Source: Promethearchaeota archaeon
GTDB lineage: Archaea > Asgardarchaeota > Lokiarchaeia > Sigyniarchaeales > SOKP01
Assembly (NCBI GenBank): GCA_048937405.1
Contig: JBHLNF010000016.1
Location: 1-61,214, forward strand
Direction: 5' to 3'
Length of the DNA stretch: 61,214 bases
The notes beneath the pieces were generated by a model. It was not told the DNA's origin and did no database searches. It worked only from the letters and a program-made list of their open reading frames with translations. Shown one piece after another: positions 10,255 to 56,085 of this stretch. The translations under genes and the position numbers were made by a program. The stretch's first letter is position 1. The number at the start of each line of letters is the position of its first letter.

Positions 10255-11121
10255 TCATTTTGTAACTTTTTTATTTTGTGCATCAATACGAATTTGTTCT
10301 ATTCTTTTACTGAATCCTTTACGTTGTTCATTAACAAATTCCCCACATATTATAATACCTTCCTTGTAATCAAAAGTTGCTTGATGGGGGGGCCAATCAA
10401 CCTTAATTTTAATTTGTTTTTGTAACCATTGCAGCATTTCTATCGCATCACCTAATTTATTTTTGGATCCATATTGGACAAAACAAGGAGCTAAAACTTC
10501 TATAAAACTAAATCCTTCATTATCAATAGATTTAAAAATACTTTTCTGTAGTCTAAGGGTGTCATATCCAGGCCATCTTGCAACATATGTCGCACCTGCC
10601 GCTGCTGCTAGACTAACCAAATTAAAGGGAGGTTCCACATTTCCATAAGGTGTTGTAGCAGTAATATCACCAATCTGACTTGTAGGAGCTACTTGTCCTC
10701 CAGTCATTCCATATATATTATTATTTACACAGAGAACTGTAATTTCTATATTTCTCCTAGCAGCGTGAATGAAATGATTTCCACCAATCGCAAAAAGATC
10801 TCCATCTCCCGATAGAACTATGACCTTTAATTTTGGGTTAGCTAATTTTATACCAGTTGCAAAAGGTATAGCTCTCCCATGTGTTGTATGGAAAGCAGGT
10901 GCTTTAAAACAGCCACTAGATCGACCAGTACATCCTATGCCAGATACAATAGCATAATCTCTATATGTGAGACCCCTTTCTTTTAAACAACTTGTAATTG
11001 ATGTAATTACAGTTCCAATTAGGCAACCTGGACAAAAAATAAATCGATTTAATTTTAACATTTCACTTAGGGGATGACAAGCTGATTCAGGGGGAATTGA
11101 TATTTGATCTGATGGGGTTAT
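10255..11121 (-). CDS. korB: 2-oxoacid:ferredoxin oxidoreductase beta subunit; proposed ATA start at 11121 (first ATG at 11061)
   Basis: FCPGC, SGIGC, HTTHGRA, SGDGD, NNNIYGMTGGQ. The frame is open 20 codons upstream of the ATG and contains the HPL..L segment typical of KorB N-termini. Confidence 0.88.
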   Translation of the reverse strand: MTPSDQISIPPESACHPLSEMLKLNRFIFCPGCLIGTVITSITSCLKERGLTYRDYAIVSGIGCTGRSSGCFKAPAFHTTHGRAIPFATGIKLANPKLKVIVLSGDGDLFAIGGNHFIHAARRNIEITVLCVNNNIYGMTGGQVAPTSQIGDITATTPYGNVEPPFNLVSLAAAAGATYVARWPGYDTLRLQKSIFKSIDNEGFSFIEVLAPCFVQYGSKNKLGDAIEMLQWLQKQIKIKVDWPPHQATFDYKEGIIICGEFVNEQRKGFSKRIEQIRIDAQNKKVTK

Positions 11122-11124
11122 ATG

Positions 11125-12270
11125 TTACACCTCCTCCATTAACTTTTTATAAATAAATTTTGGACTAAAGGGTATGGTTGTTGGAATTGTAATTCCTGAA
11201 ACAGTAAACAAATGCCTAAATCTCTGAACTTCTCTAATTATCATTCCATTGTTCATTTCACACACAATAACTTTTGAAATTCCCATTTTCCCAATTCTTT
11301 CCATTAATTCATCAGGGAAAGGCCATAGCGTTTTTAATCGTACAAGACCCACTTTATGTCCTTCCTTTCGTACGCGCTCAACGACTTCTGGTATGCCTCT
11401 TGCGTTAATACCATATGCTAAAAGAATAACATCAGCATCATCCAAATATTTTTCCTCCCAATCATTAATATCTGGTCTTGCTTTTATAATCTTTTCACAG
11501 AGGCGTTTAATAAGAGTTTCTGCTGCTTCTGGGGTCATCTGTGGATTCCCTTCACTATCATGAGTTAATCCAGTAACATAAAAAGAATAATCTGTACCTG
11601 CCACTGCCATTCCGGGCACAAGATCATCATCAAGAATCTCAAAAGGTTTATATTCTTCGGGTGGAACTTGAGGCTTTTTACGTCCTATTATCTCAATATT
11701 TGAATGAATATTAACAACTTCCATCATTTGTCCAAGAATTCCATCTGAAGCTACAATTACAGGTACACGATATTTCTCAGATAGATTAAAAGCCCGAATA
11801 GTTAAATCATACATTTCTTGGACTGTAGCTGGTGCTAATACAATTATTTCATAATCACCATGAGACGCATATCTCGTTTGATATACATCAGATTGAGAGG
11901 CATTTGTCGGTTGACCAGTGCTAGGACCTCCTCTCATAATTGTAACGATAACTGTTGGTGCCTCTAACATCACACCTAAACCTATACTTTCAGCCATAAG
12001 TGAAAGTCCAGGTCCAGAAGTTGCTGTCATAGCTTTTTTTCCAGTGTAAGAGGCTCCAAAACAACTTGTAATAGATGCCAGTTCATCCTCCATTTGAACA
12101 AATGTACCATTAACTTCAGGTAGTCTTCTTGACATATATGCTGCAATTTCTGAGGATGGTGTAATAGGGTAACCGGCAAAATAACGACATCCTGCTGTAA
12201 TAGCACCTTCTGCTGAGGCATAATTCCCTGAAGTTAAAATTTTTCTTTCTTGGAAATCTGTTTTACTCAT
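11125..12270 (-). CDS. korA: 2-oxoacid:ferredoxin oxidoreductase alpha subunit
   Basis: GNYASAEGA, AGYPITPSSE, QMEDE, TATSGPG, RGGPSTGQPT, VTGLTHD. Confidence 0.92.
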   Translation of the reverse strand: MSKTDFQERKILTSGNYASAEGAITAGCRYFAGYPITPSSEIAAYMSRRLPEVNGTFVQMEDELASITSCFGASYTGKKAMTATSGPGLSLMAESIGLGVMLEAPTVIVTIMRGGPSTGQPTNASQSDVYQTRYASHGDYEIIVLAPATVQEMYDLTIRAFNLSEKYRVPVIVASDGILGQMMEVVNIHSNIEIIGRKKPQVPPEEYKPFEILDDDLVPGMAVAGTDYSFYVTGLTHDSEGNPQMTPEAAETLIKRLCEKIIKARPDINDWEEKYLDDADVILLAYGINARGIPEVVERVRKEGHKVGLVRLKTLWPFPDELMERIGKMGISKVIVCEMNNGMIIREVQRFRHLFTVSGITIPTTIPFSPKFIYKKLMEEV

Positions 12271-12550
12271 TGTTTATATCCTCTTTTATTTTCGTTTCTA
12301 TAATATATAAACTAACAGTTGGACATAACCGTTCACACTGTCGGCATCCTCCACACTCTTTAGAATTAACTACGATTGCATAGTGAAGCATGCGACTGTT
12401 GAATTTATCTTTACTTATTTCTATTAAATCTTTTGGACAGAATGCCAAACATAATTCACAACCATCACATTGCTCAGAATCTATTAATATCTCATAATTT
12501 TTCTCTTGTGAAGGAGGTGGTAAAATAGGTTTTCGTTTAGATTTTAACAT
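12263..12550 (-). CDS. korD: 2-oxoacid:ferredoxin oxidoreductase delta subunit (ferredoxin)
   Basis: CDGCELCLAFCP and CGGCRQCERLCP; overlaps the korA start. Confidence 0.85.
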   Translation of the reverse strand: MLKSKRKPILPPPSQEKNYEILIDSEQCDGCELCLAFCPKDLIEISKDKFNSRMLHYAIVVNSKECGGCRQCERLCPTVSLYIIETKIKEDINNE

Positions 12551-12742
12551 TTTTTAATCCTCTAAAATACAAACTTTTCTGAATATATTTTATTCTCTTA
12601 TGGATAAAAAAAAATGATTCTCTATTAAATTTGCTTTTTCTAAGTATAAGTGACTCATTAAATAGTTATTCCTTTTTATGAAATTACTTTAATGAGATGT
12701 TTATAGTTAAATCTAATAAAAGTTTACTACAAAAAATATTCA

Positions 12743-13312
12743 TTATGCTTTATTTATTATTTCTTGATAGAGCGCTTGTCCAATTTGATAAGCGTGTATA
12801 TTTATAGCTCTAAACTTTTTTGGCAAATTATTTAGGACTTGAGTAAAATAATCTTCTTTTAAATCAATTTTACCATTCTTTTTGAGATGTTGAGAAAGAA
12901 ATCCTAAAGTAACAATATTAGCACTCTTAGGTAAATTGCTTTCATCAGCTCGTCTTGTAATTGGTACACGGTGGATTTTACCTTCCTTGATAATATCCTC
13001 AGCATTTGCAATTGTATGCTCATCAATAAAGGAGAAGGTGTTTTCATATATACATTCAGCTGCACGTTCGAATCCATTTTGATCTATTGCGAAAAAAATA
13101 TCGGCATCTTTATCGCAAAAAGGATATGAAATAGGTTTAGAATCTAAAATTACATCACAAAAAATAGGACCACCTCTTACAGAAGGTGTATAGTCAACAG
13201 TAAGTGTAGCATAATAATTTCCTACCATTGCAACACGAACTAGTACACTTCCCAAAAATTTTATGCCTTGACCGCCTCTACCTGAAAATCTTATTTTTAA
13301 TTTATCGTTCAT
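12743..13312 (-). CDS. korC: 2-oxoacid:ferredoxin oxidoreductase gamma subunit
   Basis: IRFSGRGGQG, YTPSVRGG, ANIVTLG; directly upstream of korDAB. Confidence 0.85.
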   Translation of the reverse strand: MNDKLKIRFSGRGGQGIKFLGSVLVRVAMVGNYYATLTVDYTPSVRGGPIFCDVILDSKPISYPFCDKDADIFFAIDQNGFERAAECIYENTFSFIDEHTIANAEDIIKEGKIHRVPITRRADESNLPKSANIVTLGFLSQHLKKNGKIDLKEDYFTQVLNNLPKKFRAINIHAYQIGQALYQEIINKA

Positions 13313-13401
13313 GTAGATTATAAAAATTTTTTTTATCTATTATTTTTTTTGGTTTATCCTCAATATATTCTAGTTCACTATCCCTAATTCAAAATTAATA
13401 T

Positions 13402-15978
13402 TTACAGCCCAAATGGTATAGATAGCATAGATATAATTAAGAAATTTAAATGTAAACTGAAAATTAGAGAAATAGAACTAACTATAATTAAATTTTTTGT
13501 CTTAAAATATACATAGGTATAAAATATACTTATGAAAAAGTAGTATATCAATTCTATTAAAACTAAAGGGATATTTCTATATCCCTCTCTTGAACTCATA
13601 AGATAAATCGGGAAAGGGAAAAAAGCAATAGGTAGAAATAGATAAAAAATTAGAATTATCATGTAAATTACACAATTTAATATGATTGCTTTCCATTTTT
13701 TAAATTTACTTGAAAGAAATGGAAAAATTAAAGCCCGGAAGATAAATTCTTGCCAGAAACAAATGGTAAAAACAAACAAAATGATAAAAACATAGAATAT
13801 GTTTATTAGAGGTATTACTTCATAACCAGCATTAAAAATAAAAAAAATAAGAAGGTTAATTAAAAGAACTAAAATGGCAATAATAATACTTAGAATAACC
13901 TTTTTTGTATTTGTGATATCTTCTCCGAATATTGTTGAGTTTAGAAAGTTTTTTATTGACATTTTACCATATGGAATTCCAAAAGATAATTGATTTATAA
14001 AAATCAAAAAAATTATATAAATTATATTTAAAATGAACAAATTAATTGAATAATGTCTGATTAGGGAATTAGAAAATGTAAAATTTATAGGAAATATCAG
14101 GAGATTTGCTAAATAATTTAAATACGTAATTATAAGACTAATCACTAATATTACTATTATCGAAATCCAAGGGCGTAGAGTAAACCAAGTTTGTCTTCCT
14201 TCAAATTGTAAACGAATTTTCCTTTCTTTAACAGGCGATCTTAGTCTTTTTAGTGGAAAAAATCTGATAAAAATAATAAAAACAACAATTATTCCAATAA
14301 CTACAAAAAGTGTTTCAACAGTAACTAAGGAAATTAAATCTTGAAATCCATAACTTATAAAGGAAAAAGTAAGAGTCCATAAATAAATCGAATATCCTGC
14401 TATATATATAAGAATCCATTTAAAATTTTTATTTTCTGGTTTTACATCTTCAATTACGTAATAATTTTTAAGTTTACCAAAAAGATAGATCTTTATCTCA
14501 AACATCACAATCAAAATTAGTAATATTAATGGCAAGGCTAATAATGCTGTACCTAGTGAAATTAAAAAGACATCTTGTCCAAGATACATTAAAGAAGGTG
14601 CTAATACTGTAATTGTTTGAATCAACAACATTAAATACAATTTTGATTTTGCCTGATCTCGTGGTATTATTGGGAGAGCTGCAAATATCGAGGTTCCAGA
14701 TTCTTCAATATTTAAAATACCATGTATAATCATGCCTGAAACAACTAAATTAAATCCTATAATGACAAACATATTTAAAATAAAGTCAATTTCAAAGGGA
14801 TTAATACCTCCTACATTTATACTATTATATGTTAATATAAAAACGAATCCAATTACAATTGGCATTACAAATGATAAGAAACTTTTAAGATTTCGAGTAG
14901 CTATTATAATATCTTTACGGATAAAAGCCCAAACAGGATTTCTAATTTTTAAAATGGTTTGCTTTTTTAATATAGCTGTTTTATTTATATCTGCTTTTTT
15001 ATCTATCTTAAGTTTTGAATATGAAGATTTTTTAATCCCTTTGATTGATTGTTGATATATTAAATACACTAAGATTAAAAAAAGAAAAAATCCAACTAAA
15101 ATATTGAACCAAATATATGTTGGAATATGTTTTGGAGAGATAAAAGTGGAAATGAGATAACCAGGAGCAATCGGATAAGGAATTAAACTCAAGATCAACA
15201 CAATTAGAGTGGGATATTGTGAACTAGCAAATGCATTAAAAAATTCATCAATAGAATTTAATGCCCATTGGATTAGAAATACACTTCCAATTACAATAAT
15301 TATATAACTACTTAAATTACTTAAACGAATAAAATGCGTTTTTTTGTCTCCAATATTATTAATATTTAAAATTCTGTTTAATCTTTCGCTGAAAAGAATT
15401 AATAATGCTAATGAGAAAATTGTGTCCAATGTTGAAACACCAAAACAAATTAAGAAAATAATTATATTTTGGGTTCCAATAAGCATTATAATAGGAAAAG
15501 CAATAGTTATTGCTATTAGTGGAATATCTAAAGTACGAATTATTGTAAGAAAAATTAGTTGTTTTAATTTTGTTCTTGAAATTGGTAAGGTTTCAAACCA
15601 ATCGAATATCCTTCCTGATAAAATCTTCATTGTGCTTAACATAGCCATAAGAAAAAAGTTAAAAAATTGGAAAAGAAAGTATATTCCAAAAAGTACACTA
15701 CCAGCAAATAAAATTCTTTCAATTGGAACGTTACCTTCATTTACAAGTGATAAAACCTCGAAATATGTTAATAATGGAATTATTGGTAAAATTCCAAAGA
15801 GGATTGCTCCAAAGATTTTTGATGCCAAAATCCTTCTTCTAAGCGACTTTTGATTTGATAAAAAACTCGTAAAGTATCTAAACCTAGAAGTTTCTAATTG
15901 CTCAACTTGCTCCTCTACCAATATTTCCTTTGTAGCAATCTTTGAAAGTGAAAAAATACTTAAATTTTGGGCCCTCAT
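13402..15978 (-). CDS. Large polytopic membrane protein: ABC-2-permease-like N-terminal part plus degenerate CPBP/Abi (CAAX protease-like) C-terminal domain
   Basis: Many hydrophobic helices. Twin FETLPIS / FAALPII and FIRKDIIIATRN motifs resemble ABC-2 permeases. FWQEFIFRAL resembles the CPBP EExxFR motif. Confidence 0.6.
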   Translation of the reverse strand: MRAQNLSIFSLSKIATKEILVEEQVEQLETSRFRYFTSFLSNQKSLRRRILASKIFGAILFGILPIIPLLTYFEVLSLVNEGNVPIERILFAGSVLFGIYFLFQFFNFFLMAMLSTMKILSGRIFDWFETLPISRTKLKQLIFLTIIRTLDIPLIAITIAFPIIMLIGTQNIIIFLICFGVSTLDTIFSLALLILFSERLNRILNINNIGDKKTHFIRLSNLSSYIIIVIGSVFLIQWALNSIDEFFNAFASSQYPTLIVLILSLIPYPIAPGYLISTFISPKHIPTYIWFNILVGFFLFLILVYLIYQQSIKGIKKSSYSKLKIDKKADINKTAILKKQTILKIRNPVWAFIRKDIIIATRNLKSFLSFVMPIVIGFVFILTYNSINVGGINPFEIDFILNMFVIIGFNLVVSGMIIHGILNIEESGTSIFAALPIIPRDQAKSKLYLMLLIQTITVLAPSLMYLGQDVFLISLGTALLALPLILLILIVMFEIKIYLFGKLKNYYVIEDVKPENKNFKWILIYIAGYSIYLWTLTFSFISYGFQDLISLVTVETLFVVIGIIVVFIIFIRFFPLKRLRSPVKERKIRLQFEGRQTWFTLRPWISIIVILVISLIITYLNYLANLLIFPINFTFSNSLIRHYSINLFILNIIYIIFLIFINQLSFGIPYGKMSIKNFLNSTIFGEDITNTKKVILSIIIAILVLLINLLIFFIFNAGYEVIPLINIFYVFIILFVFTICFWQEFIFRALIFPFLSSKFKKWKAIILNCVIYMIILIFYLFLPIAFFPFPIYLMSSREGYRNIPLVLIELIYYFFISIFYTYVYFKTKNLIIVSSISLIFSLHLNFLIISMLSIPFGL

Positions 15979-16300
15979 TAAAATTAAATCTAATTTTATT
16001 ATATTCTAAATAAGACTTATTAATAAATATAGAGGCTAAGTAATAATAATCTTATTAGAAATATTTAAAGAAGTAAAATAGAGTGAATTAAAAAAAGTTA
16101 CATCTATTTTTATCAAAATTTTGATTTTTAATGGATATAATGAATATTGAAGATTTAAATAAAGTGATTATTACATTCTTAACAAGAGAATTATTAAATG
16201 TATGTTCTAATTATTATTCTTATATATCATACAATTTATAGATTGAACTTGTTTGATTATCTAAGTAAAGTTCACTATATCAAATATGGAGGTATTGGTT

Positions 16301-16501
16301 TTGGGAAAATATGATGATGAGGATTATGTCTATTGTAATAATTGTGAGGAAGAAATACTCCAAGATAAAGCAATTTATGTAAAAGGAAAACCTTATTGTG
16401 AGAAATGCTATCAAAAGGCTGATGAGTATGGCATCTATGATGAATATGATGACGATGATGATGACGATGATGATGACGACGATGATGATGATGACGATTA
16501 A
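16301..16501 (+). CDS. Small acidic zinc-finger protein (CxxC-x17-CxxC) with poly-Asp tail
   Basis: CNNC...KGKPYCEKCY followed by 17 Asp. The TTG at 16301 follows GGAGGT + 7 nt; alternative ATG at 16286. Confidence 0.7.
   Translation: MGKYDDEDYVYCNNCEEEILQDKAIYVKGKPYCEKCYQKADEYGIYDEYDDDDDDDDDDDDDDDDD
16448..16498 (+). repeat. (GAT/GAC)17 trinucleotide tract encoding poly-Asp
   Basis: Directly visible; mixed GAT/GAC codons end at the TAA. Confidence 0.95.
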
Positions 16502-16676
16502 TCTTCTTTACATAAATTTATAACTCGTAGCTAAAATAATAGTAAAAGTCCTAAAAAAAAATATATTACTAACCAATATTTTAATTAGAAATTCTTTTAA
16601 AAATTGATTTCTTTTAATAATTTTATTTAAATTATTTGTTGAAACTAAATTGTTTCTTAAAAAATTGGAATAAATT

Positions 16677-18353
16677 ATGAATTTTAAGAGTAAGTTTGTT
16701 TTTGTTACAGGCGGTGTTATGAGTGGCATAGGAAAAGGTGTTGCTACTGCTAGTATAGGTAAGGTATTACAATTTCGTGGTTTTAAAGTATCAGTAGTAA
16801 AAATTGATCCTTATTTGAATGTAGATCCCGGAACTTTAAACCCAATCGAGCATGGTGAATGCTTTATTACCGAGGATGTATGGGATTTCAGACCAGTTCC
16901 TGGTTCTGATGAACGATCATATAGAATTTCCGAAATTGATCAGGATTTTGGGACCTATTCAAGGATTTTAGGAATTGAAATGCATCCATCCCATAATATA
17001 ACATCAGGTCAAATTTATCTATCTACAATCCTTAGTGAAAGAAAAGGAAGATTCTTAGGGAAAACAGTTCAAATAATTCCACATGTAACAGATATTATAA
17101 AAGAAAGATTAATGGAAATTGCGGATAAAGAAGATTTAGATGTATTATTAATTGAATGTGGTGGAACGGTGGGTGATTTAGAATCAAGTATATTTTTGGA
17201 AGCGTTTCGTCAATTAAAATTAGAATATCCAAAACGTACTGCATTTGTACATGTTACTCTCATTCCTTATTCAAAAGCTGTAGGGCAGCAAAAGTCAAAA
17301 CCAACTCAACACTCAGTAAAAATGCTTCAAAGTGTAGGATTACAACCTGATATAATAATTGGTAGAAGTGAAAAACCCTTAGATAAAGACATAAAGAGGA
17401 AAATTTCATTGTTTTCTAACGTTCCTGAAAACGCAGTAATCTCAAATCCAGATTTAGAAATAGTTTATGAATTACCATTATTTTTTGAAGAACAAGGATT
17501 AGGGGACTTAATTTGTGAGCTTATTGATTTAAAGGCAAAATTGGTTGCATATAGTGAAGTAACAAATTACTCAGAATGGGTTAAAATGGTTGAATTATTT
17601 AAAAGTACAAAGGAGACTCTAAAGATTGCAATGCCTGGTAAATATTTTAACATATCAGATTCCTATATCTCAATAAATGTGGCTTTAGAAGATGCTGCTG
17701 CTCATCTTGGCTATAAAACAGATTTAAAAATGATTAGCATTGATGAAAAAACAAATATTGCTGAAGAACTAAAAGATTGTAACGGAATTTTGCTTACACC
17801 GGGATTTGGTAAAAGAGCAGTGGAAGGAATGATTAAATCAGCAGAATATGCCATGGAAAATAAGATTCCATTTCTAGGTATTTGTTTTGGAGCTCAATTG
17901 TTTTTTGTGGCCTTTTGTAGAAAATACCTTGGCTTAAAAGGGGCCAATTCTACAGAACTTGACCCTAACACACCATATCCTGTTGTTGATATTTTAGCAA
18001 GTCAGAAAGAAGTAACTGAAAAAGGAGGAACAATGAGATTAGGAGCACAGAAGATCTTAATTGAGAAGAATACACATTTATATGATGCGTATAAACAAGA
18101 ATTCATCTATGAACGATACCGACATAGATTTCATATTCAACAGAGATTTATTAAAGATGAAGCTAAAGAAAAAGGTTTGCGTATATCAAGTACTGATGAA
18201 ACGGGAACTATAATTAATAGTATAGAGTTAGATAGAAAAGATCATTGGATGGTTGGTACCCAATTTCACCCAGAATTTAAAAGTCGACCATATAATCCAT
18301 CTCCACTATATTTAGAATTTATAAAAGCATGTATTAAAAATAAGAAAAAATAA
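16677..18353 (+). CDS. pyrG: CTP synthase
   Basis: FVTGGVMSGIGKG, KIDPYLNVDPGT, GGTVGD, KSKPTQHSV, GICFG, QFHPEF. Confidence 0.97.
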   Translation: MNFKSKFVFVTGGVMSGIGKGVATASIGKVLQFRGFKVSVVKIDPYLNVDPGTLNPIEHGECFITEDVWDFRPVPGSDERSYRISEIDQDFGTYSRILGIEMHPSHNITSGQIYLSTILSERKGRFLGKTVQIIPHVTDIIKERLMEIADKEDLDVLLIECGGTVGDLESSIFLEAFRQLKLEYPKRTAFVHVTLIPYSKAVGQQKSKPTQHSVKMLQSVGLQPDIIIGRSEKPLDKDIKRKISLFSNVPENAVISNPDLEIVYELPLFFEEQGLGDLICELIDLKAKLVAYSEVTNYSEWVKMVELFKSTKETLKIAMPGKYFNISDSYISINVALEDAAAHLGYKTDLKMISIDEKTNIAEELKDCNGILLTPGFGKRAVEGMIKSAEYAMENKIPFLGICFGAQLFFVAFCRKYLGLKGANSTELDPNTPYPVVDILASQKEVTEKGGTMRLGAQKILIEKNTHLYDAYKQEFIYERYRHRFHIQQRFIKDEAKEKGLRISSTDETGTIINSIELDRKDHWMVGTQFHPEFKSRPYNPSPLYLEFIKACIKNKKK

Positions 18354-18415
18354 AATAATTCTCTGAGAATTACCAATACATAAATAAGTTCTTTTGGTTT
18401 AGATTGAATAGGGTA

Positions 18416-36841: not shown

Positions 36842-37411
36842 CTAATATTTCTGCTTTTTAAATTTTGGCTTGAATATTATAGACGGTCTGACCTTCTCAT
36901 AATAATTAAAACCTTCTGCATCATGAATATCACCATATTTTTTTTGTAATTCCTTAAATGATGCTACATCAAGAGCATACATAGGACATGCTTCAACACA
37001 GATGGTTTGTTGTCCTTGTTCTAGACGGTCAAAACAAAAATTACATTTTTCCATTTTTGAATTTTCTTCATCACGAAATTGAGGAATATCCCAAGGACAA
37101 GCTTTTAAACATTTTGCACCACACTCTTTCTTTCCTATACATTTCTTAGAATTAACAATAACAATTCCATCTGATTCTCTTTTAGTGATAGCTTCCACGG
37201 GACATGCTTTTATACATGGTGGATTAACACAATGATTACAAGCAATTGATAAATAAGCTAAAAACAACTCAGGAAATGTTCCATTCTCAATAATATTGAT
37301 TTTTCTCCAATTAACACCAACAGGGAGATCATTCCAATCCTTGCAAGCTAATACACATGTATAACAACCAATACATCTTGTTTGATCAAAATAAAAACCC
37401 ATTTGCATCAT
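36842..37411 (-). CDS. dmsB: DmsB-like 4Fe-4S electron-transfer subunit
   Basis: GFYFDQTRCIGCYTCVLACKDWN, SIACNHCVNPPC, KCNFC...CVEACP. Confidence 0.85.
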   Translation of the reverse strand: MMQMGFYFDQTRCIGCYTCVLACKDWNDLPVGVNWRKINIIENGTFPELFLAYLSIACNHCVNPPCIKACPVEAITKRESDGIVIVNSKKCIGKKECGAKCLKACPWDIPQFRDEENSKMEKCNFCFDRLEQGQQTICVEACPMYALDVASFKELQKKYGDIHDAEGFNYYEKVRPSIIFKPKFKKQKY

Positions 37412-39684
37412 TTAAATACCTCTATTTTATTCTTAGGAGATAATTCAATTTCTACTAAAGAACTATTTAAAGGAAAGGCACCACCAGGTGAATAATTATC
37501 ATTCGTTAAAACATTAGCACATCCACCAAGATCGACACCATCTTTATCTGGATTATACCATGCACCTTGATATACACAGACAGCTCCAGGTATAATACGT
37601 TCTGTAACCTTAGCAGGAATTCTAATCCTACCTCTATCATTAAATACATCTACTATATCTCCATTGTTTATGTTGCGTTTCAGAGCATCAACAGAGTTTA
37701 TCCAAACGGCATGAGTTTCCACCTCTTCTAACCATGGAATAATACTTAAAGTAGAATGGGTTCTTCTTTTATTATGAGGAGTAAGAAGTTGTAATGGAAA
37801 TCTCTTTGCTTTAGGGGAGTCATAATGTTCTTCATGGGTTAAATATTTTGGAATTGGAGGAATTAATGGATTATTGTTCTCTGCAATATGTTCACAAAAA
37901 ATTTCAATTTTTCCCGATAACGTAGGAAAGGGATTATTCTCAAGATCTACAATTTGTTCTTTAAAGGCAACAAAAGGTTCTTCAACCTTAACTTTAAAAT
38001 ATCCATCTCTCTTCATCTTATTGTAATTTTTTATATCTTTTCGAGGAGCGGTAAACATTCTTAGAAGTTCATCCTCTGATAAATCTAATAGACTGTTTTT
38101 TATTCCCAATTTTTTCGATAATTCTTTACATATTTCTAAATCTGATTTTGATTCATATAAGGAATCAATTGCTTTATTTAAATAGATATAATAAGGTGAT
38201 CCTAACCATGGAACTGCAATATCATTGCGTTCCATAAATGTATTAACTGGTAAAACAATATCTGCTAATTGTGCCGTAGGAGTCATGAATTGTTCATATA
38301 CTACGATAAATTCTAGAGATTTTAGAGCTTTAATGCCTTTATTGACATTTGCATACTGGTTTAAACGATTCGTTGCTGCTATATATGCCATTTTAATATC
38401 AGCAGGATACCCTCCCTTTCTACCTTCTAACATTGCATTATAATAATCATTAGAATGAATACGAGTATTTGCAGGATTAGTTCCACCTCTTAATTTATAA
38501 AGACTATCTTTACGAGGAGGGGCATTTAAATCAATAGGGTTATCTTGGATCCTAGGTTTTTTAGCTTTTTCCTCATCTAATTTGATTGGACCAATCTTTT
38601 TTTTCCCTCCTGTGATAATTCTCTCCCGACTATAGTAGGCACGCATGAATCCAGATGCATAACCACCATTAATTCCAATATTGCCTGTTATTACACATAA
38701 TATGTTAGCAGCTCTAGAGTATTGTTCACCAAACATTGTTCTAGCGGGGCCCCAACCCGCAATCAATGCAGCCGGTTTCGCTGTAGCGTACTCCCGAGCA
38801 AGATCAATAATTGTTTCTGAAGGTACAGAAGTAATTTTTTCTGCCCATTCAGGGGTTTTTGGAATTCCATCTTCTTTACCAATAACATATTCCTTGAATT
38901 TTTCAAACCCCACAGTATATTTTTCAATAAATGACTTATCGTGTAAATTTTCAGTTATAATCACATATGCCATAGCTAATAACATAGCAGTGTCAGTGCC
39001 AGGGCGAATAGGAATCCATTGATGGGCTATAGTCGCGGCAGAATCTGTAAATATTGGATCAATCGCTTTTATTTTTATTCCCTTTTCTCGAGCTCTAGCC
39101 AACCATAGACTAGTACCAGGATCCCAAATAGTATTTACGGGATTCCAACCCCACATAATTATAAATTTGGAATTAAGTAGATCTTCTCTAGCATTTCCAG
39201 TCATCAATGTGCCATAAGTTGCCATAGAAGCAAAAAGAGCACCTTCATAGGAGGCAGCACCCCACATTCTAGTATATCCTCCAATTTGATTAAGCATCAA
39301 TGCATGAGGAGTAATTCCATGGAGCATCCCTTGATTCCCACTTCCAGGAACAAGTAAAATAGCGGAGTTTCCATATTTTTTTTTTATTTCTGTAATTTTA
39401 GAAGCAATTTCATCTAATGCATCCTCCCATGATATTTTTTCAAATATTCCTACACCACGTTTACCAACACGACGTAAAGGGTGCTTAAGTCTCTCATCAG
39501 AGTAAACTCTCTGTCTATACGCTCTTCCTCTTAAACATGCTCTTAATTGTGGTTGTTCTTCATTATCGGTTTCTAACCGAATGATCTTTCCATCTCTTAT
39601 AAGAGCACGTAGAACACAACGCCCTCCACAATCATGACAACAACCTGTTTTAACTATTTTAATTTCATTTTTTTTTGCATCTAT
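37408..39684 (-). CDS. dmsA: DMSO-reductase-family molybdopterin oxidoreductase catalytic subunit; proposed ATA start at 39684 (758 aa), no Tat signal
   Basis: The ORF track starts at 39327, but the frame stays open for 119 more codons encoding CCHDCGGRC, LRACLRGR, RLKHPLRRVGKRG and ISWEDALD. Core motifs WGWNP, PIRPGTD, MTPTAQLADIVLP, SGKIEI, RTHS. Confidence 0.85.
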   Translation of the reverse strand: MDAKKNEIKIVKTGCCHDCGGRCVLRALIRDGKIIRLETDNEEQPQLRACLRGRAYRQRVYSDERLKHPLRRVGKRGVGIFEKISWEDALDEIASKITEIKKKYGNSAILLVPGSGNQGMLHGITPHALMLNQIGGYTRMWGAASYEGALFASMATYGTLMTGNAREDLLNSKFIIMWGWNPVNTIWDPGTSLWLARAREKGIKIKAIDPIFTDSAATIAHQWIPIRPGTDTAMLLAMAYVIITENLHDKSFIEKYTVGFEKFKEYVIGKEDGIPKTPEWAEKITSVPSETIIDLAREYATAKPAALIAGWGPARTMFGEQYSRAANILCVITGNIGINGGYASGFMRAYYSRERIITGGKKKIGPIKLDEEKAKKPRIQDNPIDLNAPPRKDSLYKLRGGTNPANTRIHSNDYYNAMLEGRKGGYPADIKMAYIAATNRLNQYANVNKGIKALKSLEFIVVYEQFMTPTAQLADIVLPVNTFMERNDIAVPWLGSPYYIYLNKAIDSLYESKSDLEICKELSKKLGIKNSLLDLSEDELLRMFTAPRKDIKNYNKMKRDGYFKVKVEEPFVAFKEQIVDLENNPFPTLSGKIEIFCEHIAENNNPLIPPIPKYLTHEEHYDSPKAKRFPLQLLTPHNKRRTHSTLSIIPWLEEVETHAVWINSVDALKRNINNGDIVDVFNDRGRIRIPAKVTERIIPGAVCVYQGAWYNPDKDGVDLGGCANVLTNDNYSPGGAFPLNSSLVEIELSPKNKIEVFK

Positions 39685-40148
39685 CTTAAAATCAACCTTC
39701 CATTTTATTATAAACTGAATCTTAACTATAAATATGCATGATGTTTAAAGACTTTTTATGTAATGAGTTAATGAAAGTTTAATTGCTATTTACCCTATTT
39801 GTTGGAGAGAAATAAGAGAAGATTAAGAAAAATTACTTATTATTCATATCATGGTTTTCTTCTCTCATATATCATATAGCAATTTATTCCCATAAAAATA
39901 TAAAACTTCTCTCAATGATCTACAACAAATTCAGATTATCTTGTTTTCAACGGAGAATTTTATGAGAATATTTTGCATAGAAAATATCGCCTTTAATACT
40001 AGTGATAATATATATCAATAGATTTTCAAATTAATCTTATATTATTTGATACTTCTTTTTAACCTTTTCACAATTCTTTTCCAAGATTTTTTAATTTATT
40101 GTGTATAGTTATAACTTAAATTTACATAACAAATTAGAGTTGATATAA

Positions 40149-47744: not shown

Positions 47745-47831
47745 ATTATTTATTTACAATGACTTTTTTTTTGTAATTCTTTTTATTTTCAATAAGTAAT
47801 TTCAATTAATTAAAAGGGATCACTCTTTGTT

Positions 47832-47963: not shown

Positions 47964-48071
47964 AATTCTTCCTATCATTTTGGATACTATTTCTTTAACT
48001 TTATTTTGTCTACTAAATTTAACTAAAGTAACTAATAAAAAAAAAAATGAATAAAAGAAATAGTGATTATA

Positions 48072-49124: not shown

Positions 49125-49337
49125 TCAAAATAAAAGGAGTTTTTATTAAATCACTTCTTTAATTTATTTTTTATATATTATCTTGACTTAATATTTATAG
49201 CATATAAATCTTTTAAGGATTCTAATATCTAAATATATAATTTGAATTTAAATAATTTAACATATGATCAAAGACTATATAAGATTAAAAAATTTAAATC
49301 GATTTAATAAATTCATTAGACTTAATAATTAGTTGCT

Positions 49338-50393
49338 ATGGTAAATCCAATTAATAAATTCAAAATTTATAAATCCGATGCAGCCCCATTTTTCTTTTAT
49401 ATAGAAATATTTCCTCCCAATCTTACATCTTATAATAAAGAATATGCTCTAGTACTCTTAAAAAAAATAAAGGAAAATCCAATAATGCCTTTACCTATGA
49501 GAGTGGATCGGGTATTTAATGGAGAAAAATCACTTTTAATCCGCCCTAGAGAACCAATCTCCTTCCCAATAATGGATGATCTAGAAGCATGGGTCAATCC
49601 CTCTATATTTCTTCAATATGGAATAGAAAAATTGCTGTATTTTACTGAAATTCGTGCTTTTGAATTATTTATAAGTCATCTTAAGATAGAAAAAATTAAT
49701 AAATGGTGGAAGGCATCAAAATTCCTTTATGCAAAAATTCGACAAATTGAGGAAGATTTCTCAGCATCTTTAAAAGCTTATATTAGTACAGTATTAAAAG
49801 CAAAACTTAATAATGAAGATATTATAAATGCTGCAAAGGATTATTGTAAAATTATTAAGGAACTATGTGAAAACAGAATGAACCAAAATTCTATTATAGT
49901 TGAAACAATAAGTAAAGTAGGTAATGTTAGAATGTATATAGAAAAAACAGGAAGATATCGTGAAAAAGGGAAAAAAGTTGAAAAGATTGAATATCATCCT
50001 GAGCTTATAGATATTGATGTATATAACCTAGTCGAGAAGGGCTTTAAGTACAATAGAGATAATCAAGACATAAATTTAGATGAATTAAAACCAAAACAGA
50101 TAAAATACATTCCACTATTATTCTATGATGATTTACTTGAATGTATGCTCCAAAATCTTAAAATATTAGAAGATGGAAATGAAAATATATTAGATCCTTC
50201 ATTTTTATTGGATAGGAATATAATTCTTCTACATGAAACTAAAAAAACAGAAGAATTAAAAATTCATGACTTTTCTTGGTTTAAAACTTTCGAGGAATTA
50301 AAATTTGAGTCAATACTTGAATCAATAAAAGCTACTCTTTTAGATCTTTATAAATCTAAAGGATATATTGATAATAATAAAATAAATTCCTAA
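49338..50393 (+). CDS. Hypothetical protein (351 aa)
   Basis: Long ORF in AT-rich DNA; no family motif that I recognise. Confidence 0.75.
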   Translation: MVNPINKFKIYKSDAAPFFFYIEIFPPNLTSYNKEYALVLLKKIKENPIMPLPMRVDRVFNGEKSLLIRPREPISFPIMDDLEAWVNPSIFLQYGIEKLLYFTEIRAFELFISHLKIEKINKWWKASKFLYAKIRQIEEDFSASLKAYISTVLKAKLNNEDIINAAKDYCKIIKELCENRMNQNSIIVETISKVGNVRMYIEKTGRYREKGKKVEKIEYHPELIDIDVYNLVEKGFKYNRDNQDINLDELKPKQIKYIPLLFYDDLLECMLQNLKILEDGNENILDPSFLLDRNIILLHETKKTEELKIHDFSWFKTFEELKFESILESIKATLLDLYKSKGYIDNNKINS

Positions 50394-50512
50394 AGTTCTC
50401 GAGTTGGATTTAGTTAAAGTTAATTTTATTTAATTAGTTAATAAATAACCTTAATAACAGTAATGTTTTTCTTATTTTAAGGATTTAAAAGTAGAATTTT
50501 ACAAAAGAGTAA

Positions 50513-51652
50513 ATGCAATACAAGAAAGAAAGACCCGCAATTTTAATGCTCCAAGATGGTCGGTATTTTCAAGGAATTGGTTTTGGGGCAACAAAAATTG
50601 TAACAGGCGAATTTGTATTTAATACTATGACTGGTGCGGGGTACCTTGAAACTCTCACAGATCCATCTTATTGGGGACAAATAGTTGTAATGACTCATCC
50701 CCTTATAGGAAATTACGGAGTTCCTCCATGGGAGAAAGATGAATATGGTATAACTAAACACTTTGAATCAGATTCTGTTAAAGTAACTGGTTTTGTTGTA
50801 AATGAATGTTGTAAATACCCTAATCATTATCAAAGTGTTAAAACTCTTGATGAATTTTTGACTGAACAAGATATTCCTGGAATTGAATGGATTGACACTC
50901 GAGCAATTACTAAAATTTTACGTGAAGAGGGTGTTCAAGTTGGAGCACTAGCAGTATATAATTCAGGGGAGAATCCTGATATTGATTATTTAAAACAGCT
51001 TGCAGCAAAAGTAGTAGACCCAAATCTCCGCAATCTTGTAAGCGAGGTTTCAACAAAAGAGGTTTGTATCTATAAGTCACCTAATCCAATTGGCAAAGTT
51101 GTTTTGTTAGATTTAGGTTATAAACTGAATATTTTACGAAATCTTGTCTCTAGAGGATTAGAAGTAATAATAGTACCACATAATTATACATATGAGCAAA
51201 TTATGTCTTACAATCCAGATGGAGTATTTATTTCAAATGGTCCTGGTGATCCGGCATTATGTAAAGAAGCAATCGAAGTTTCCAGTAAACTTATCGAACA
51301 AAGCATTCCTACTATGGGAATATGTATGGGAAATCTTATCTTAGCTTTAGCCACTGGAGCTGTTTCATATAAACTCAAATACGGACATCGAGGAGGAAAT
51401 AAAACAGTTATTAGTCTTCAATCGAATAAATGTTATATTACATCTCAAAACCATGGTTTTTGTGTAAAAGATTTTGAAAAAGGAGGATTCAAAGAGATCC
51501 TTAGAAATGTTGATGACCAGACTAATGAGGGTATTGAACATAAAACTAAACCTATTTTTGCAGTCCAATTTCATCCAGAAGCCTGTCCTGGACCTTTAGA
51601 TTCATTATATTTATTTGATAAATTCATAGATAACATGAGGTTAACTTCCTAA
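50513..51652 (+). CDS. carA: Carbamoyl-phosphate synthase small subunit
   Basis: GEFVFNT, LTDPSY, PLIGNYGVP, SNGPGDP, GICMG, SQNHG, QFHPEA. Confidence 0.96.
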   Translation: MQYKKERPAILMLQDGRYFQGIGFGATKIVTGEFVFNTMTGAGYLETLTDPSYWGQIVVMTHPLIGNYGVPPWEKDEYGITKHFESDSVKVTGFVVNECCKYPNHYQSVKTLDEFLTEQDIPGIEWIDTRAITKILREEGVQVGALAVYNSGENPDIDYLKQLAAKVVDPNLRNLVSEVSTKEVCIYKSPNPIGKVVLLDLGYKLNILRNLVSRGLEVIIVPHNYTYEQIMSYNPDGVFISNGPGDPALCKEAIEVSSKLIEQSIPTMGICMGNLILALATGAVSYKLKYGHRGGNKTVISLQSNKCYITSQNHGFCVKDFEKGGFKEILRNVDDQTNEGIEHKTKPIFAVQFHPEACPGPLDSLYLFDKFIDNMRLTS

Positions 51653-54600
51653 TGCCATTAAATAAAAATATTAAAAAAGCTCTTGTTTTAGGAAGTGGAG
51701 GTATTAGGATCGGTCAAGCAGGTGAATTTGATTATAGTGGTTCTCAAGTACTTAAAGCTCTTAAGGAAGAAGGTATAGAAACCATCTTAATCAATCCTAA
51801 TATCGCAACTATTCAAACTGATCCTGAATTATCGGATAAGGTTTATTTATTACCGATCAATGTAAATTATGTAGAAGAAGTTACCAGAAAAGAGAAACCT
51901 GATGGAATTTTACTAGCATTTGGAGGACAGACTGCTTTAAATGTAGGTGTTGAATTAAATGAATTAGGAATTCTTAAAAAGTATAACGTTAAAGTTTTAG
52001 GTACTCCAATTGAAGCAATCGAAGCAACTGAAGATAGAGATCTTTTTGTACAAGCTATGGATAAGTCAGGAGTTAAAGTGTGCAAAAGCAAAGCTGTATC
52101 TTCATATAATGATGCAATAAAAGCAGCAGAAGAGATTGGATTTCCATGTATGATTCGAGTGGCTTATACATTGGGTGGCAGAGGATCAGGGATATGTACT
52201 AATATGAGAGAATTTGAAAAGATGGCTAAGAAAGGTCTTGCTCAATCAAGAATAAGCCAAATATTAATTGAAGAAAGTATATGGGGTTGGAAGGAGATTG
52301 AATATGAAGTAGTAAGAGATGCCGAAGATAATTGTTTTATTAATTGTAATATGGAGAATTTTGATCCCGTGGGAATTCACACAGGTGAATCAATTGTTGT
52401 TGCACCTAGCCAGACCTTAACAAATGAAGAATATCAAATGCTTCGTTTAGCCTCTATTCGTGTAATAAGAAATCTGGGAATTATTGGTGAATGCAACATT
52501 CAGTATGGATTAGATCCATTTTCAAGAGAATTTAGAGCAATAGAAGTAAACGCTCGTCTTTCACGGTCTTCAGCATTAGCTTCAAAAGCTACAGGATATC
52601 CATTAGCATATATAGCCGCAAAATTAGCAATAGGGTATACATTACCAGAACTAAAAAATAAAATTACTGGTATTACTACAGCATGTTTCGAACCTGCTTT
52701 AGATTATCTCGTGTTAAAAATACCTCGATGGGACTTGACAAAATTCCAAAGAGTAGATCGAAAAATCGGCTCACAAATGAAATCTGTAGGTGAAGTAATG
52801 GCAATTGGTCGTACATTTGAAGAAGTACTTCAAAAAGCTTTGAGAATGCTGGATATTGGTATGAAAGGATTAGTTGGAAATGAAATCAAACCAATTGAGG
52901 ATATAAATGAATTAAAATTTAGCTTAAGCAATCCCACTGATTTAAGAGTCTTTAGGATTGTCGAAGCTATAAATAAAGGAATTTCTATAGATGAAATATA
53001 TCAATTATCTCGAATAGATAAGTGGTTCCTCTTTAAAATAAAAAATATTATTGATATTGAAAAAGAATTAGAGAATATAGAGTTTTTAGAAACCAGTGAT
53101 GATGATAAAATTTATTGGTTTGAACGAGCAAAACGTTTTGGTTTTTCTGATGGACAAATAGCTAAAATCATGGGATTAGATGTAATTACAATAAGACAAA
53201 TTCTAAAGAGAAAATATCAAATCCAACCATACGTAAAAAGAATTGATACATTAGCAGCAGAATGGCCTGCTATCACAAATTACCTTTATATTACCTATGC
53301 TGCCTCTGAACATGATATTGACTTTGAACATGAAAGCAAACAGAACTTAAGAAAAGTAATAGTTCTTGGGTCTGGAACTTATCGCATTGGAGCTTCTGTA
53401 GAATTTGATTGGGGTTCAGTGAATTGTCTATGGGGCTTAAAAAAACTCGGGGTTGATCAGGCAATTATGGTAAATTACAATCCAGAAACGGTCTCTACGG
53501 ACTATGACATATCAGATAAACTTTATTTTGAGGAATTATCAGGTGAACGTGTATTAGATATCGTTGAGCTTGAAAAAGCTGATGGAGTGATAGTATCTGT
53601 AGGTGGTCAGATTGCACAAAATCTAGCAGCAAAGTTTTCAAAATATTCTGAATTTTTCAGAAAAGTAAATCTAAATATATTAGGAACACATGGAAGTAGA
53701 ATTGACATGGCAGAAGACCGTTCGAAATTTAGTAACTTATTAGATCAATTAAAAATTAGTCAACCTCGATGGAGTATGTTGACGAATAAAGAGCAAGCAC
53801 TGAAATTCGCAAAAAAAGTAGGGTATCCCGTTTTAGTACGACCTTCCTACGTTTTAAGTGGTGCAGCAATGAGAGTATCTTATGATGAAAAGACTTTAAG
53901 AGATACTTTAGATCTGGCTGTAGCTATTTCTCAGGAATATCCTGTTGTTATTACTAAATTCTTTACAGGTGCAAGAGAGATTGAAGCTGATGGAATATGC
54001 GATGGGACCAATGTCTTTATAGGAGCAATAGTAGAGCATATAGAGAATGCGGGGGTGCATAGTGGAGATGCAACAATGTCAATTCCTCCACAAACAGTTT
54101 CTGACAAAGTTATTAAAACAATTGAAAAAAATACTGAAGAAATTGCATTAGCATTAAAGATTAGAGGTCCATTTAATGTACAATATCTTGTCAAAGACGA
54201 ACAAGTATATGTAATAGAGTGCAACCTCAGATCAAGCAGGAGTATGCCTTATGTTTCAAAAACAAGAGGTATTAATCTGATGAGATTAGCTGCTGAAGTG
54301 TTTTTGGGAGCTAAAATCCCTCAGTCGATAATGGAACTTCCCTATGGAGATTTTGTTTCCATTAAAGCTCCAATGTTTTCTTTCATGCGTCTTGATAAAG
54401 CTGATCCTGTTTTAGGTGTAGAAATGGCATCTACAGGTGAAGTTGCATGTATAGGAGAAGATTTTTCAGATGCTTTAATTAAATCGCTTGAAGCCACGGA
54501 GATGAGCATTCCAGTCCAAGGGGGAAATGTTTTAATATCAGTAGGAGGTAAAGAATTAAAACAAAAAGTAATACCTTTAGCACATAAATTAAAAGCTTTA

Positions 54601-54966
54601 GGTTTTACAATTTTTGCTACTGAAGATACTGCTATTGCGTTAAAAGATAATGGTATCTATGCCGTTAAACTTTATAAAATCCATGAATATGGTATGGAGC
54701 CAAATATAATGGAATGCCTGCAAAATGGAGCTATTGATTTAGTGATTAATATCCCTCTCCCTACAACAATTCAAGAAAAATTCAGAACTATAATGGAAGA
54801 TGAATATAAAATTAGAAGAATGGCAGTAGATTACAATATCCCTGTAATTATCAATTTACAACTGGCAGAAGCTTTAATAGATGCTATAGAAAAGGTTCGT
54901 AGAAAAAGACTTGAGATCAAATCTCTAAATGAATATCATAAAAGTTTAAAAGAAATTTACTGGTAA
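51652..54966 (+). CDS. carB: Carbamoyl-phosphate synthase large subunit
   Basis: IGQAGEFDYSG, NPNIATIQTD, EVNARLSRSSALASKATG, NPETVSTDYD, C-terminal MGS domain. TAATG overlap with carA. Confidence 0.97.
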   Translation: MPLNKNIKKALVLGSGGIRIGQAGEFDYSGSQVLKALKEEGIETILINPNIATIQTDPELSDKVYLLPINVNYVEEVTRKEKPDGILLAFGGQTALNVGVELNELGILKKYNVKVLGTPIEAIEATEDRDLFVQAMDKSGVKVCKSKAVSSYNDAIKAAEEIGFPCMIRVAYTLGGRGSGICTNMREFEKMAKKGLAQSRISQILIEESIWGWKEIEYEVVRDAEDNCFINCNMENFDPVGIHTGESIVVAPSQTLTNEEYQMLRLASIRVIRNLGIIGECNIQYGLDPFSREFRAIEVNARLSRSSALASKATGYPLAYIAAKLAIGYTLPELKNKITGITTACFEPALDYLVLKIPRWDLTKFQRVDRKIGSQMKSVGEVMAIGRTFEEVLQKALRMLDIGMKGLVGNEIKPIEDINELKFSLSNPTDLRVFRIVEAINKGISIDEIYQLSRIDKWFLFKIKNIIDIEKELENIEFLETSDDDKIYWFERAKRFGFSDGQIAKIMGLDVITIRQILKRKYQIQPYVKRIDTLAAEWPAITNYLYITYAASEHDIDFEHESKQNLRKVIVLGSGTYRIGASVEFDWGSVNCLWGLKKLGVDQAIMVNYNPETVSTDYDISDKLYFEELSGERVLDIVELEKADGVIVSVGGQIAQNLAAKFSKYSEFFRKVNLNILGTHGSRIDMAEDRSKFSNLLDQLKISQPRWSMLTNKEQALKFAKKVGYPVLVRPSYVLSGAAMRVSYDEKTLRDTLDLAVAISQEYPVVITKFFTGAREIEADGICDGTNVFIGAIVEHIENAGVHSGDATMSIPPQTVSDKVIKTIEKNTEEIALALKIRGPFNVQYLVKDEQVYVIECNLRSSRSMPYVSKTRGINLMRLAAEVFLGAKIPQSIMELPYGDFVSIKAPMFSFMRLDKADPVLGVEMASTGEVACIGEDFSDALIKSLEATEMSIPVQGGNVLISVGGKELKQKVIPLAHKLKALGFTIFATEDTAIALKDNGIYAVKLYKIHEYGMEPNIMECLQNGAIDLVINIPLPTTIQEKFRTIMEDEYKIRRMAVDYNIPVIINLQLAEALIDAIEKVRRKRLEIKSLNEYHKSLKEIYW

Positions 54967-55063
54967 AAAAATTCCATGTCATTATAGTAATTTTATAACT
55001 TTAACAAGAAAAACTTTATACAAATTAATAAAAAAAATTTTTGATTAGTTCAAATGATAGTTA

Positions 55064-55576
55064 TTATTTTTTCCCTTTAATTAATGCGATTAGGATTACT
55101 AGTAATCCAAATATCAATGCATTTACTGTACCTGTAATTAGAATTCTAATTATCCCGTCAATTAATGTGGCGGTAAAACTGATATAATTTAAATTGAAAT
55201 CATCAATGGAAATTATAGCTATAAACATTAGCATATAACAGATTGCTGTTATCATCCAACCTCCTATAGATTCACCAATATTACTCCCCATAAGCCCTGC
55301 AACAATTGCAGCAATAATAAAAGATATTAAACCTGCCATATAAAAAAATTTAAATGCAAAGCTAGATGCATCGACAGAATTAGTTATAAGTTCCCAGGGG
55401 AAGTATCGAGAAGGGTAAATCAATAAAAAAACACTACTGGATGGATGGTCTGCGATTGTATCAAACACAGAATCTAAAATGTCTCCAATTGCGAATGAAA
55501 TAATGTAAAAAAGGAAATTTAATACTAAGAAAACAATTAAACTGAATATAAAAGCCCTACCTGTACTTCTTTTCAT
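55064..55576 (-). CDS. Hypothetical membrane protein (about 4 TM helices)
   Basis: Hydrophobic segments; AGGGG SD-like site upstream. Confidence 0.7.
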   Translation of the reverse strand: MKRSTGRAFIFSLIVFLVLNFLFYIISFAIGDILDSVFDTIADHPSSSVFLLIYPSRYFPWELITNSVDASSFAFKFFYMAGLISFIIAAIVAGLMGSNIGESIGGWMITAICYMLMFIAIISIDDFNLNYISFTATLIDGIIRILITGTVNALIFGLLVILIALIKGKK

Positions 55577-55800
55577 TAAATAAAACCCCTTCTGTCTATT
55601 TTTAAAAATTTAAAATATAATAATTAATAGATGTAGGAGAATTTATAAGGTTTTTATATATATAAAGAGAATTAGAAAAAAAAACCATTACATTAAAGAA
55701 TATACATCGGTTCAATAATAGAAATCTTGAAAAATAGTGCAAATATAATTCTACTTATTATTTATGCTATATTTTAAGTTATAATTTTGGTGTTAGAGAG

Positions 55801-56085
55801 ATCTATTATCGTGGATATATTTTAATTCGACTGAAAATCATTGGTACACAGTGGAAAGTATCAGAAAAATTAAGGAATTTGAATTTTCAGAAGAAAAGTG
55901 AAAAATGGCAGATCACTTATGTAACACCATTGTATGGTGGTTGGGATTTATTAGTTGAATGTAAATTTAGCAATCTAGAGGATTTAGATGAAATTGTTAC
56001 ATTCTGCAGAACTGACTTAGAATTAGCTCAATGGATAGAAACAACGACCACTCTAATTAGTACAAAGAAGAATTATAAAGATTAG
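55801..56085 (+). CDS. Stand-alone Lrp/AsnC ligand-binding (RAM) domain protein; proposed ATC start (94 aa)
   Basis: LYGGWDLLVE and IETTTTLI are Lrp/AsnC C-domain motifs. The first strand (YRGYILIRL) and helix (WKVSEKLRNL) lie upstream of the TTG at 55879. Confidence 0.75.
   Translation: MYYRGYILIRLKIIGTQWKVSEKLRNLNFQKKSEKWQITYVTPLYGGWDLLVECKFSNLEDLDEIVTFCRTDLELAQWIETTTTLISTKKNYKD

Follow-up and report, generated by a model that had tools for sequence, protein, structure and literature searches.

Shine-Dalgarno-anchored ATA, ATT and ATC as probable start codons in a Sigyniarchaeales (Asgard) archaeal genome

Bacterial genes occasionally start at AUH codons (H = A, C or U; ATH in DNA): infC begins with AUU and is under translational autocontrol, AUU or AUA starts are found rarely elsewhere, as in pcnB of Escherichia coli, and near-cognate starts amount to a handful of genes per genome. 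Mitochondrial codes use ATA, ATT and ATC starts in extremely A+T-rich genomes that have no Shine-Dalgarno (SD) sequence, and ATA often means methionine there. Both IF3, through its AUU start, and eIF1, through its poor start context, autoregulate via weak start sites (PMC4705826). Within the Asgard archaea, a "rare ATT start codon" has been proposed for AtubA of a Kariarchaeaceae metagenome-assembled genome (MAG) (Sci Adv 2026, PMC13394414). AUH initiation as such is thus already known; here we describe ATH codons in start position in a Promethearchaeota archaeon of the Sigyniarchaeales, starting from three genes (korB, a dmsA-like gene and a RAM-like gene) on the 61,214-nt contig JBHLNF010000016.1 of assembly GCA_048937405.1, which in full is called the window below.

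This system resembles infC in that near-cognate AUH codons stand behind an SD and in that the factor policing start codons, here aIF1 at ATT, itself appears to sit on a weak codon. It differs from infC in its extent, since no fewer than about 50 SD-backed cases were counted and a single window has 3 among its 44 genes, and in its proofreader, since aIF1 is the homologue of eIF1 and unrelated to IF3; autocontrol is known for infC and would be hypothetical here. Because aIF1 is orthologous to eIF1, its weak start site would sense stringency much as in eIF1 autoregulation. In contrast to near-cognate starts in eukaryotes (CUG, ACG, AUU), the start would be positioned by SD pairing and not by scanning and Kozak context. 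An A+T-rich genome with ATH starts recalls mitochondria, but ATA stays isoleucine internally here, and the starts depend on the SD. AtubA is a similar Asgard case, in which the deposited protein was N-terminally truncated and an upstream ATT, at a plausible ribosome-binding-site distance, restores the fold; it is a single-gene methods remark on another Asgard group, with no genome-wide statistics and no link to aIF1 (PMC13394414). Our literature search found no systematic description of Asgard ATH starts beyond this remark.

The window takes up contig C2 completely, one of the 29 contigs of a 4.47-Mb MAG (G000) with 29% G+C, rated 100% complete with an estimated contamination of 5.7%. To define the SD of this genome, we used 1527 frames in which no more than 6 codons separate the upstream stop from the first ATG; they yielded the consensus GGAGGTGA, with G enriched at −14 to −8 and the end of the motif about 6 nt before the ATG. 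The 3' end of the 16S rRNA from a genome of the same order (GGATCACCTCCT) is complementary to this motif, and the share of G000 genes that carry an SD is perhaps between a quarter and a third. We then examined every strong 5-mer of the motif across the whole genome and recorded the codon at each spacing, provided that the frame ran for at least 100 codons, that an in-frame stop lay no more than 12 codons upstream, and that there was no canonical start (ATG, GTG or TTG) upstream of or near the motif or in the next 8 codons.

At spacings of 5–7 nt after the SD, we found 132 canonical codons, 53 ATH codons and 39 others, compared with 43, 37 and 223 at the off-peak spacings of 0–3 and 10–14 nt. 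ATH is therefore strongly enriched at SD spacing relative to off-peak positions (odds ratio 8.2, p = 4.6e-15), far beyond chance; this enrichment, which the preliminary description had proposed looking for, thus holds on the whole genome. The commonest A+T-rich control codons (AAA, AAT, TAT and TTA) were close to zero at the peak and CUG and ACG were seen three times each, so that the near-cognate codons used are almost only AUA, AUU and AUC. Placement was narrower for ATH than for ATG: 32 of 63 ATH codons, and 33 of 162 ATG codons, lay at a spacing of exactly 6 (p = 1.4e-5). Such tight placement is expected if a weak codon needs optimal positioning, and it fits start selection driven by SD position. 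A plain trinucleotide count after every SD-like 5-mer gave no ATG peak, because most such 5-mers lie within genes.

A count that was not selected on the SD agreed with these numbers. In 163 frames the first canonical start is preceded by at least 30 codons, and in 76 of these an SD of at least 4 nt is followed by an in-frame ATH. The excess over control codons amounts to about 60–80 of 3602 frames, roughly 2% as a lower bound. From these comparisons, at least about 50 genes without an ATG, GTG or TTG start most likely begin at ATH. Within the genus the trait is plain, and single genes extend it across the family; the signal from another family is only suggestive.

For the window itself, the N-termini of its 44 non-shadow open frames (70 codons or longer) were inspected by eye in alignments with the syntenic regions of as many as six congeners; for a few frames there was no orthologue to align. 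Three of the 44 (korB, the dmsA-like gene and the RAM-like gene) have no canonical start at the conserved N-terminus, and all three alike lack any in-frame ATG, GTG or TTG between the upstream stop and the conserved N-terminal sequence. Every other frame with a comparable orthologue has ATG, GTG or TTG there. The preliminary description, which had reported ATH starts in three of roughly 45 genes, was right in this count, in the positions of the three codons and in calling the genes otherwise free of lesions, as all three frames are open and intact. Its claims that each gene has an SD at the ordinary spacing of 6–8 nt and starts at the named ATH stood for korB (6 nt) and the RAM-like gene (8 nt); for the dmsA-like gene the motif is AGGT at 10 nt, and the exact start codon was not supported. 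The observation was thus partly confirmed, and the three genes represent three different cases rather than one.

The RAM-like gene provides the clearest case:
55801..56085, plus strand: stand-alone RAM-like (Lrp/AsnC ligand-domain-like) protein of 94 aa, start ATC at 55801-55803
55789-55792, plus strand: SD core GGTG of the RAM-like gene (AGGTG in most relatives), 8 nt before the ATC

The alignment of 20 congeners shows ATC or ATT at this position, 8 nt after AGGTG and in most of them directly preceded by an in-frame TAG, TAA or TGA. Of 30 homologues from several genera of the family, 28 have ATT or ATC there, and the remaining two carry an ATG one codon upstream, giving M-T-YYRGY. Among 80 loci from public MAGs, the start codon is ATT in 62, ATC in 17, ATA in one and ATG in none; all 80 show an AGGT or GGTG core 6–9 nt upstream of the ATH, and in 21 the codon before it is an in-frame stop. 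The ratio of non-synonymous to synonymous substitution rates (dN/dS) is 0.12–0.15. In the AlphaFold model (pLDDT 80), the elements follow the order beta-alpha-beta-beta-alpha-beta with beta1 at residues 3–11, so that translation beginning at TTG 55879, the first canonical codon, would remove beta1 and helix alpha1 and thereby destroy the predicted fold. By comparison of these sequences, the ATH start of the RAM-like gene appears firm, ancient and non-canonical, and since ATG is wholly absent across so wide a divergence, selection seems to maintain the weak codon.

The top Foldseek matches of the model are stand-alone RAM and Lrp/AsnC proteins (2cvi, 2cyy, 2e1a, 1ri7 and 2zbc; E about 6e-4, TM-score 0.6–0.7), with other ferredoxin-like folds scoring almost equally. 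A profile search matched 2cvi with an E value of 0.02, and Pfam AsnC_trans_reg scored 17.3 bits (E 0.0045), below its cut-off of 25. We use the name RAM-like because the Pfam match is below the cut-off and the structural matches are not exclusive.

About 65 nt upstream of the RAM-like gene lies a 22-nt AT-rich element, AATAATAGAAATCTTGAAAAAT (55714-55735, plus strand), which is near-invariant across 20 congeners between variable flanks and may, judging from this conservation, be a promoter or operator. Some of the public loci that matched the RAM-like gene (L236-L315) are titled Odin-, Hod-, Hermod- or Thorarchaeota and one is titled Nanopelagicaceae, a bacterial name. As the Odinarchaeota-titled MAG of L236 falls in the window's own genus, such titles look like mislabels or mis-binned contigs.

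The dmsA-like gene lacks a canonical start, and here the position of the actual start is less certain:
37408..39684, minus strand: dmsA-like molybdopterin oxidoreductase, read from the candidate ATA 39684..39682; Pfam Molybdop_Fe4S4, Molybdopterin and Molydop_binding
36842..37411, minus strand: dmsB-like 4Fe-4S subunit; Pfam Fer4_11; its ATG overlaps the dmsA-like stop (ATGA)
39697-39699, minus strand: AAG at the ancestral dmsA-like start position, from a codon table of 20 orthologues

The Fe4S4, molybdopterin and dinucleotide-binding domains, together with the downstream 4Fe-4S partner, place the protein in the DMSO reductase family; no twin-arginine signal is visible in its translation. The overlap between the two genes suggests that upstream translation may feed the dmsB-like gene. 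Starting at the first canonical codon, ATG 39327, would drop 119 residues counted from ATA 39684 (139 of the open frame), including the CxxCxxxC of the Fe4S4 domain. The ancestral start, as judged from 20 orthologues, lies 5 codons upstream of ATA 39684; at this position or one codon upstream, 10 of the 20 have ATG and one has TTG. At the same place the other nine carry AAG (G000 and its closest relative, G048), ACG, AGT, GGT, AAT or ATA, and none of these nine has another canonical start before the cysteines. All orthologous frames nevertheless span 765–823 codons, and dN/dS between G000 and G048, both of which lack a canonical start, is 0.12 at a dS of 0.26. Purifying selection and intact frames therefore indicate that the dmsA-like gene is functional without a canonical start and that ATG was lost several times.

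Which codon has taken over is a closer call. ATA 39684 has about an even chance of being the start and is the best candidate from the alignment: the codon is ATA or ATC in 20 of 20 orthologues, the sole near-cognate that is invariant before the Cys motif, and many relatives have GTGA 7 nt before it. Since the ancestral ATG lay 5 codons upstream, this conservation is not in itself evidence of a start. We regard a start elsewhere, such as at AAG 39699..39697 or at an ATA further up- or downstream, and perhaps on a short-leader or leaderless mRNA without an SD, as a serious though less favored possibility. It would agree with the upstream location of the ancestral ATG, with the absence of an SD before that ATG in the ATG-starting orthologues, with the frame remaining open for 20 codons further upstream in G000 and G048, and with the AGGT that is all that precedes ATA 39684, at a poor distance. 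However, some congeners are two or three changes away from ATG at the ancestral position (AGT, AAT, GGT), which therefore cannot be the common start, and neither the invariance of ATA/ATC at 39684 nor the GTGA + 7 nt of many orthologues would be accounted for.

Two other routes into the dmsA-like frame were considered and rejected. A −1 slip on an A9 run (39663-39679, minus strand), joining an out-of-frame ATG (ATG CAA AAA AAA A) to the main frame, fails, as both the ATG and the A9 run are missing from the closest relative, and re-initiation after a three-codon upstream frame (ATG GAA GGT TGA) is not conserved in G048. Most congeners also share an element resembling a transcription factor B recognition element (BRE) and TATA box, ACATAAAAAGTCTTTAAA (39744-39762, minus strand), upstream of the dmsA-like gene; it lies about 45 nt before the ancestral start position and would imply a short leader.

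In korB, the orthologous start was hit exactly:
10255..11121, minus strand: korB (2-oxoacid:ferredoxin oxidoreductase beta subunit), ATA 11121..11119 to stop 10257..10255; Pfam TPP_enzyme_C, E 2e-33
11128-11137, minus strand: korB ribosome-binding site GGAGGAGGTG, in the last korA codons, 6 nt before the ATA
11125..12270, minus strand: korA (alpha subunit), ATG start; Pfam POR_N, E 1e-66; from the list of open reading frames

The korB frame is open for 289 codons from the ATA, and the korA stop codon, TAA, lies one codon upstream. Its class is indicated by the TPP-binding C-terminal domain, FCPGC near the N-terminus and a POR_N alpha subunit directly upstream. In nine of nine congeners (eight plus the closest relative, G048) the aligned codon is ATG, which shows that the start proposed earlier for korB is the orthologous one, and all aligned starts are followed by the shared (N/S)PS(D/N)Q...HPL...FCPGC. 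The first canonical start, ATG 11061, would cut off this conserved HPL...FCPGC lead-in. The SD GGAGGAGGTG fits both the genome consensus and its usual spacing and was recovered by the genome-wide scan. It is formed by the last four sense codons of korA (ATG GAG GAG GTG TAA; 11125-11137, minus strand), and the M-E/K-E-V C-terminus of korA is kept in all congeners; SD and coding sequence therefore constrain each other.

ATH codons in start position also occur in essential genes elsewhere in the genome:
G000 contig C28:552393 (L102 394-396), plus strand: uS4, ATA behind GAAGGTGA + 6 nt
G000 contig C29:22004-22219 (L071 1477-1791), minus strand: aIF1 (SUI1), frame TGA TAA GAG AGT ATT AAA...

The uS4 ATA is aligned with ATG in 31 of 35 genomes (5 of other families and 26 of 30 of the same family), including all five sampled congeners. 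Another genus has independently acquired ATA in two genomes and ATC in one, and every uS4 ATH stands behind AAGGTGA + 5–6 nt. As in uS4 (I-GDPRR), the family-typical N-terminus begins right at the ATH in uL15, an actin-like protein, an IleRS-like protein, small GTPases and a GPN-type GTPase, PPAT, UspA and response regulators. When seven further ATH starts of G000 were compared with five congeners, six were shared with at least one congener, among them uL15, whose start is ATT in five of six genomes and ATG in the sixth; one was private, an ATT behind an SD better than that of the relatives. In the aIF1 frame, no canonical start precedes the zinc-ribbon cysteines; in four genomes of another family the aIF1 start is ATA (G024), ATG (G071), ATG or TTG (G061) and TTG (G026).

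A ferredoxin-domain gene (G000 contig C10:126079, minus strand) has a private ATT that is ATG in three congeners. Its SD in G000, GAGGT, is better than the GAGAGTTGA of its relatives, which looks as though the codon had weakened in step with a strengthening of the SD.

These comparisons bear on whether korB and the other private ATH starts might be consensus or assembly errors, or minority alleles, in an organism that really uses ATG. This is suggested by the ATG in nine of nine congeners, G048 as the closest one included, and by the estimated contamination of the MAG. On the other hand, a like private change stands behind a strong, well-spaced SD in uS4 of this genome and arose independently in MAGs of another genus, random errors should not concentrate at the third position of start codons that follow strong SDs, and the window frames are intact throughout. 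Deep conservation of some ATH starts and ongoing turnover of others in independent assemblies argue against assembly error as a general explanation, and we consider an error or minority allele in korB and the other private cases unlikely.

The codons, their SDs, the orthologous ATG positions, the enrichment with its narrow spacing and the purifying selection described above are best explained by SD-anchored near-cognate initiation at ATH under relaxed aIF1 proofreading, a reading that we hold to be probable. Strong pairing of GGAGGTGA with the 16S 3' end (...GAUCACCUCCU) would place the small ribosomal subunit. The initiator Met-tRNA would then start at AUA, AUU or AUC about 6 nt after the motif, with a mismatch only at the third base. 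These starts would be tolerated since aIF1 proofreading would be comparatively lax or limiting, and the AUU start of the aIF1 gene itself would tie aIF1 synthesis to the stringency of the cell. In support of this role, Sulfolobus aIF1 has been reported to reject AUU on 30S subunits in vitro (PMC4705826). Mutation pressure towards A+T (29% G+C) would repeatedly convert ATG to ATH, with survival where the SD is strong; some ATH starts would then be recent and private (korB, uS4), and others old and kept as weak starts (RAM-like). We infer that ATH is read by Met-tRNAi, that the factor permitting this is aIF1, and that such starts lower expression.

Both interpretations offered in the preliminary description find support in these data. 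Relaxed start selection driven by SD position agrees with the private changes from ATG to ATH in korB, uS4 and the ferredoxin-domain gene and with the narrow ATH spacing, and the use of weak starts for regulation agrees with the RAM-like gene, which is never ATG in 80 homologues, and with the non-canonical start of aIF1 itself. In a stronger form, AUA, AUU and AUC would be a regular third start-codon class wherever the SD is strong and optimally spaced, aIF1, made from its AUU start, would close a stringency-sensing feedback loop of the kind known for IF3 and eIF1, and selection would hold the RAM-like and aIF1 genes on weak starts as a means of regulation; this extension is tentative, and we place it just short of even.

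Several points weigh against SD-anchored ATH initiation or narrow its reach. About 70% of the G000 genes have no SD and lie outside the reach of the spacing test, and in 760 kb sampled from a genome of another family the signal at the peak was weak (26 canonical codons, 4 ATH and 6 others; p = 0.04). The ATH starts are identified by sequence comparison. No 16S rRNA was found in the G000 MAG, and a search of G000 for an initiator tRNA gave no anticodon-arm pattern match with CAT. At the level of single genes, the SD of the dmsA-like gene in G000 is poor, and its ATA 39684 is an internal Ile codon in the ATG-starting orthologues. The third base of the korB start codon is A only in G000, so that an assembly error or a minority variant at that one base is conceivable.

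A change in decoding would make a permissive aIF1 unnecessary: ATA could encode Met, as it does in mitochondria, or AUH could be read by a further initiator tRNA or through an anticodon modification. Mitochondria do combine ATA = Met with ATH starts, and since the tRNA set of G000 is poorly recovered (7 genes by ARAGORN, 14 with introns allowed, and no initiator among them), a change in a tRNA is conceivable; the low number may reflect many introns or gaps in the assembly. ATA as a Met codon is, however, ruled out by the substitution profile of internal ATA codons, which are aligned with Ile in 74% of cases, Val in 11%, Leu in 7% and Met in 2%, like ATT and ATC and unlike ATG. ATT and ATC are also used besides ATA, and no observation made here favors an additional tRNA. 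We regard altered decoding in any of these forms as very unlikely. Least probable of all, and hardly credible, is that the genes are pseudogenes or encode shorter proteins from the first downstream ATG, GTG or TTG, as standard calling rules would have it, given that dN/dS is 0.12–0.15 in the dmsA-like and RAM-like genes, that the upstream parts are conserved as protein, that a downstream start deletes the Fe4S4 cysteines, RAM beta1 or the conserved korB N-terminus, and that the essential uS4, uL15 and aIF1 share the pattern.

If SD-anchored ATH initiation is true, these archaea are a natural test case for what determines start-codon fidelity in the archaeal/eukaryotic-type initiation machinery, and the repeated gain and reversal of ATH under A+T pressure measures how far start-codon selection can relax. 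That standard gene callers truncate such proteins, as the preliminary description anticipated, follows from the lists of open reading frames: in these Asgard genomes, callers limited to ATG, GTG and TTG would shorten or miss a few per cent of all proteins. Among those affected are ribosomal proteins, aIF1, and cytoskeletal and GTPase genes, which are used in studies of eukaryote origins, and one published tubulin has already needed correction by hand (PMC13394414).

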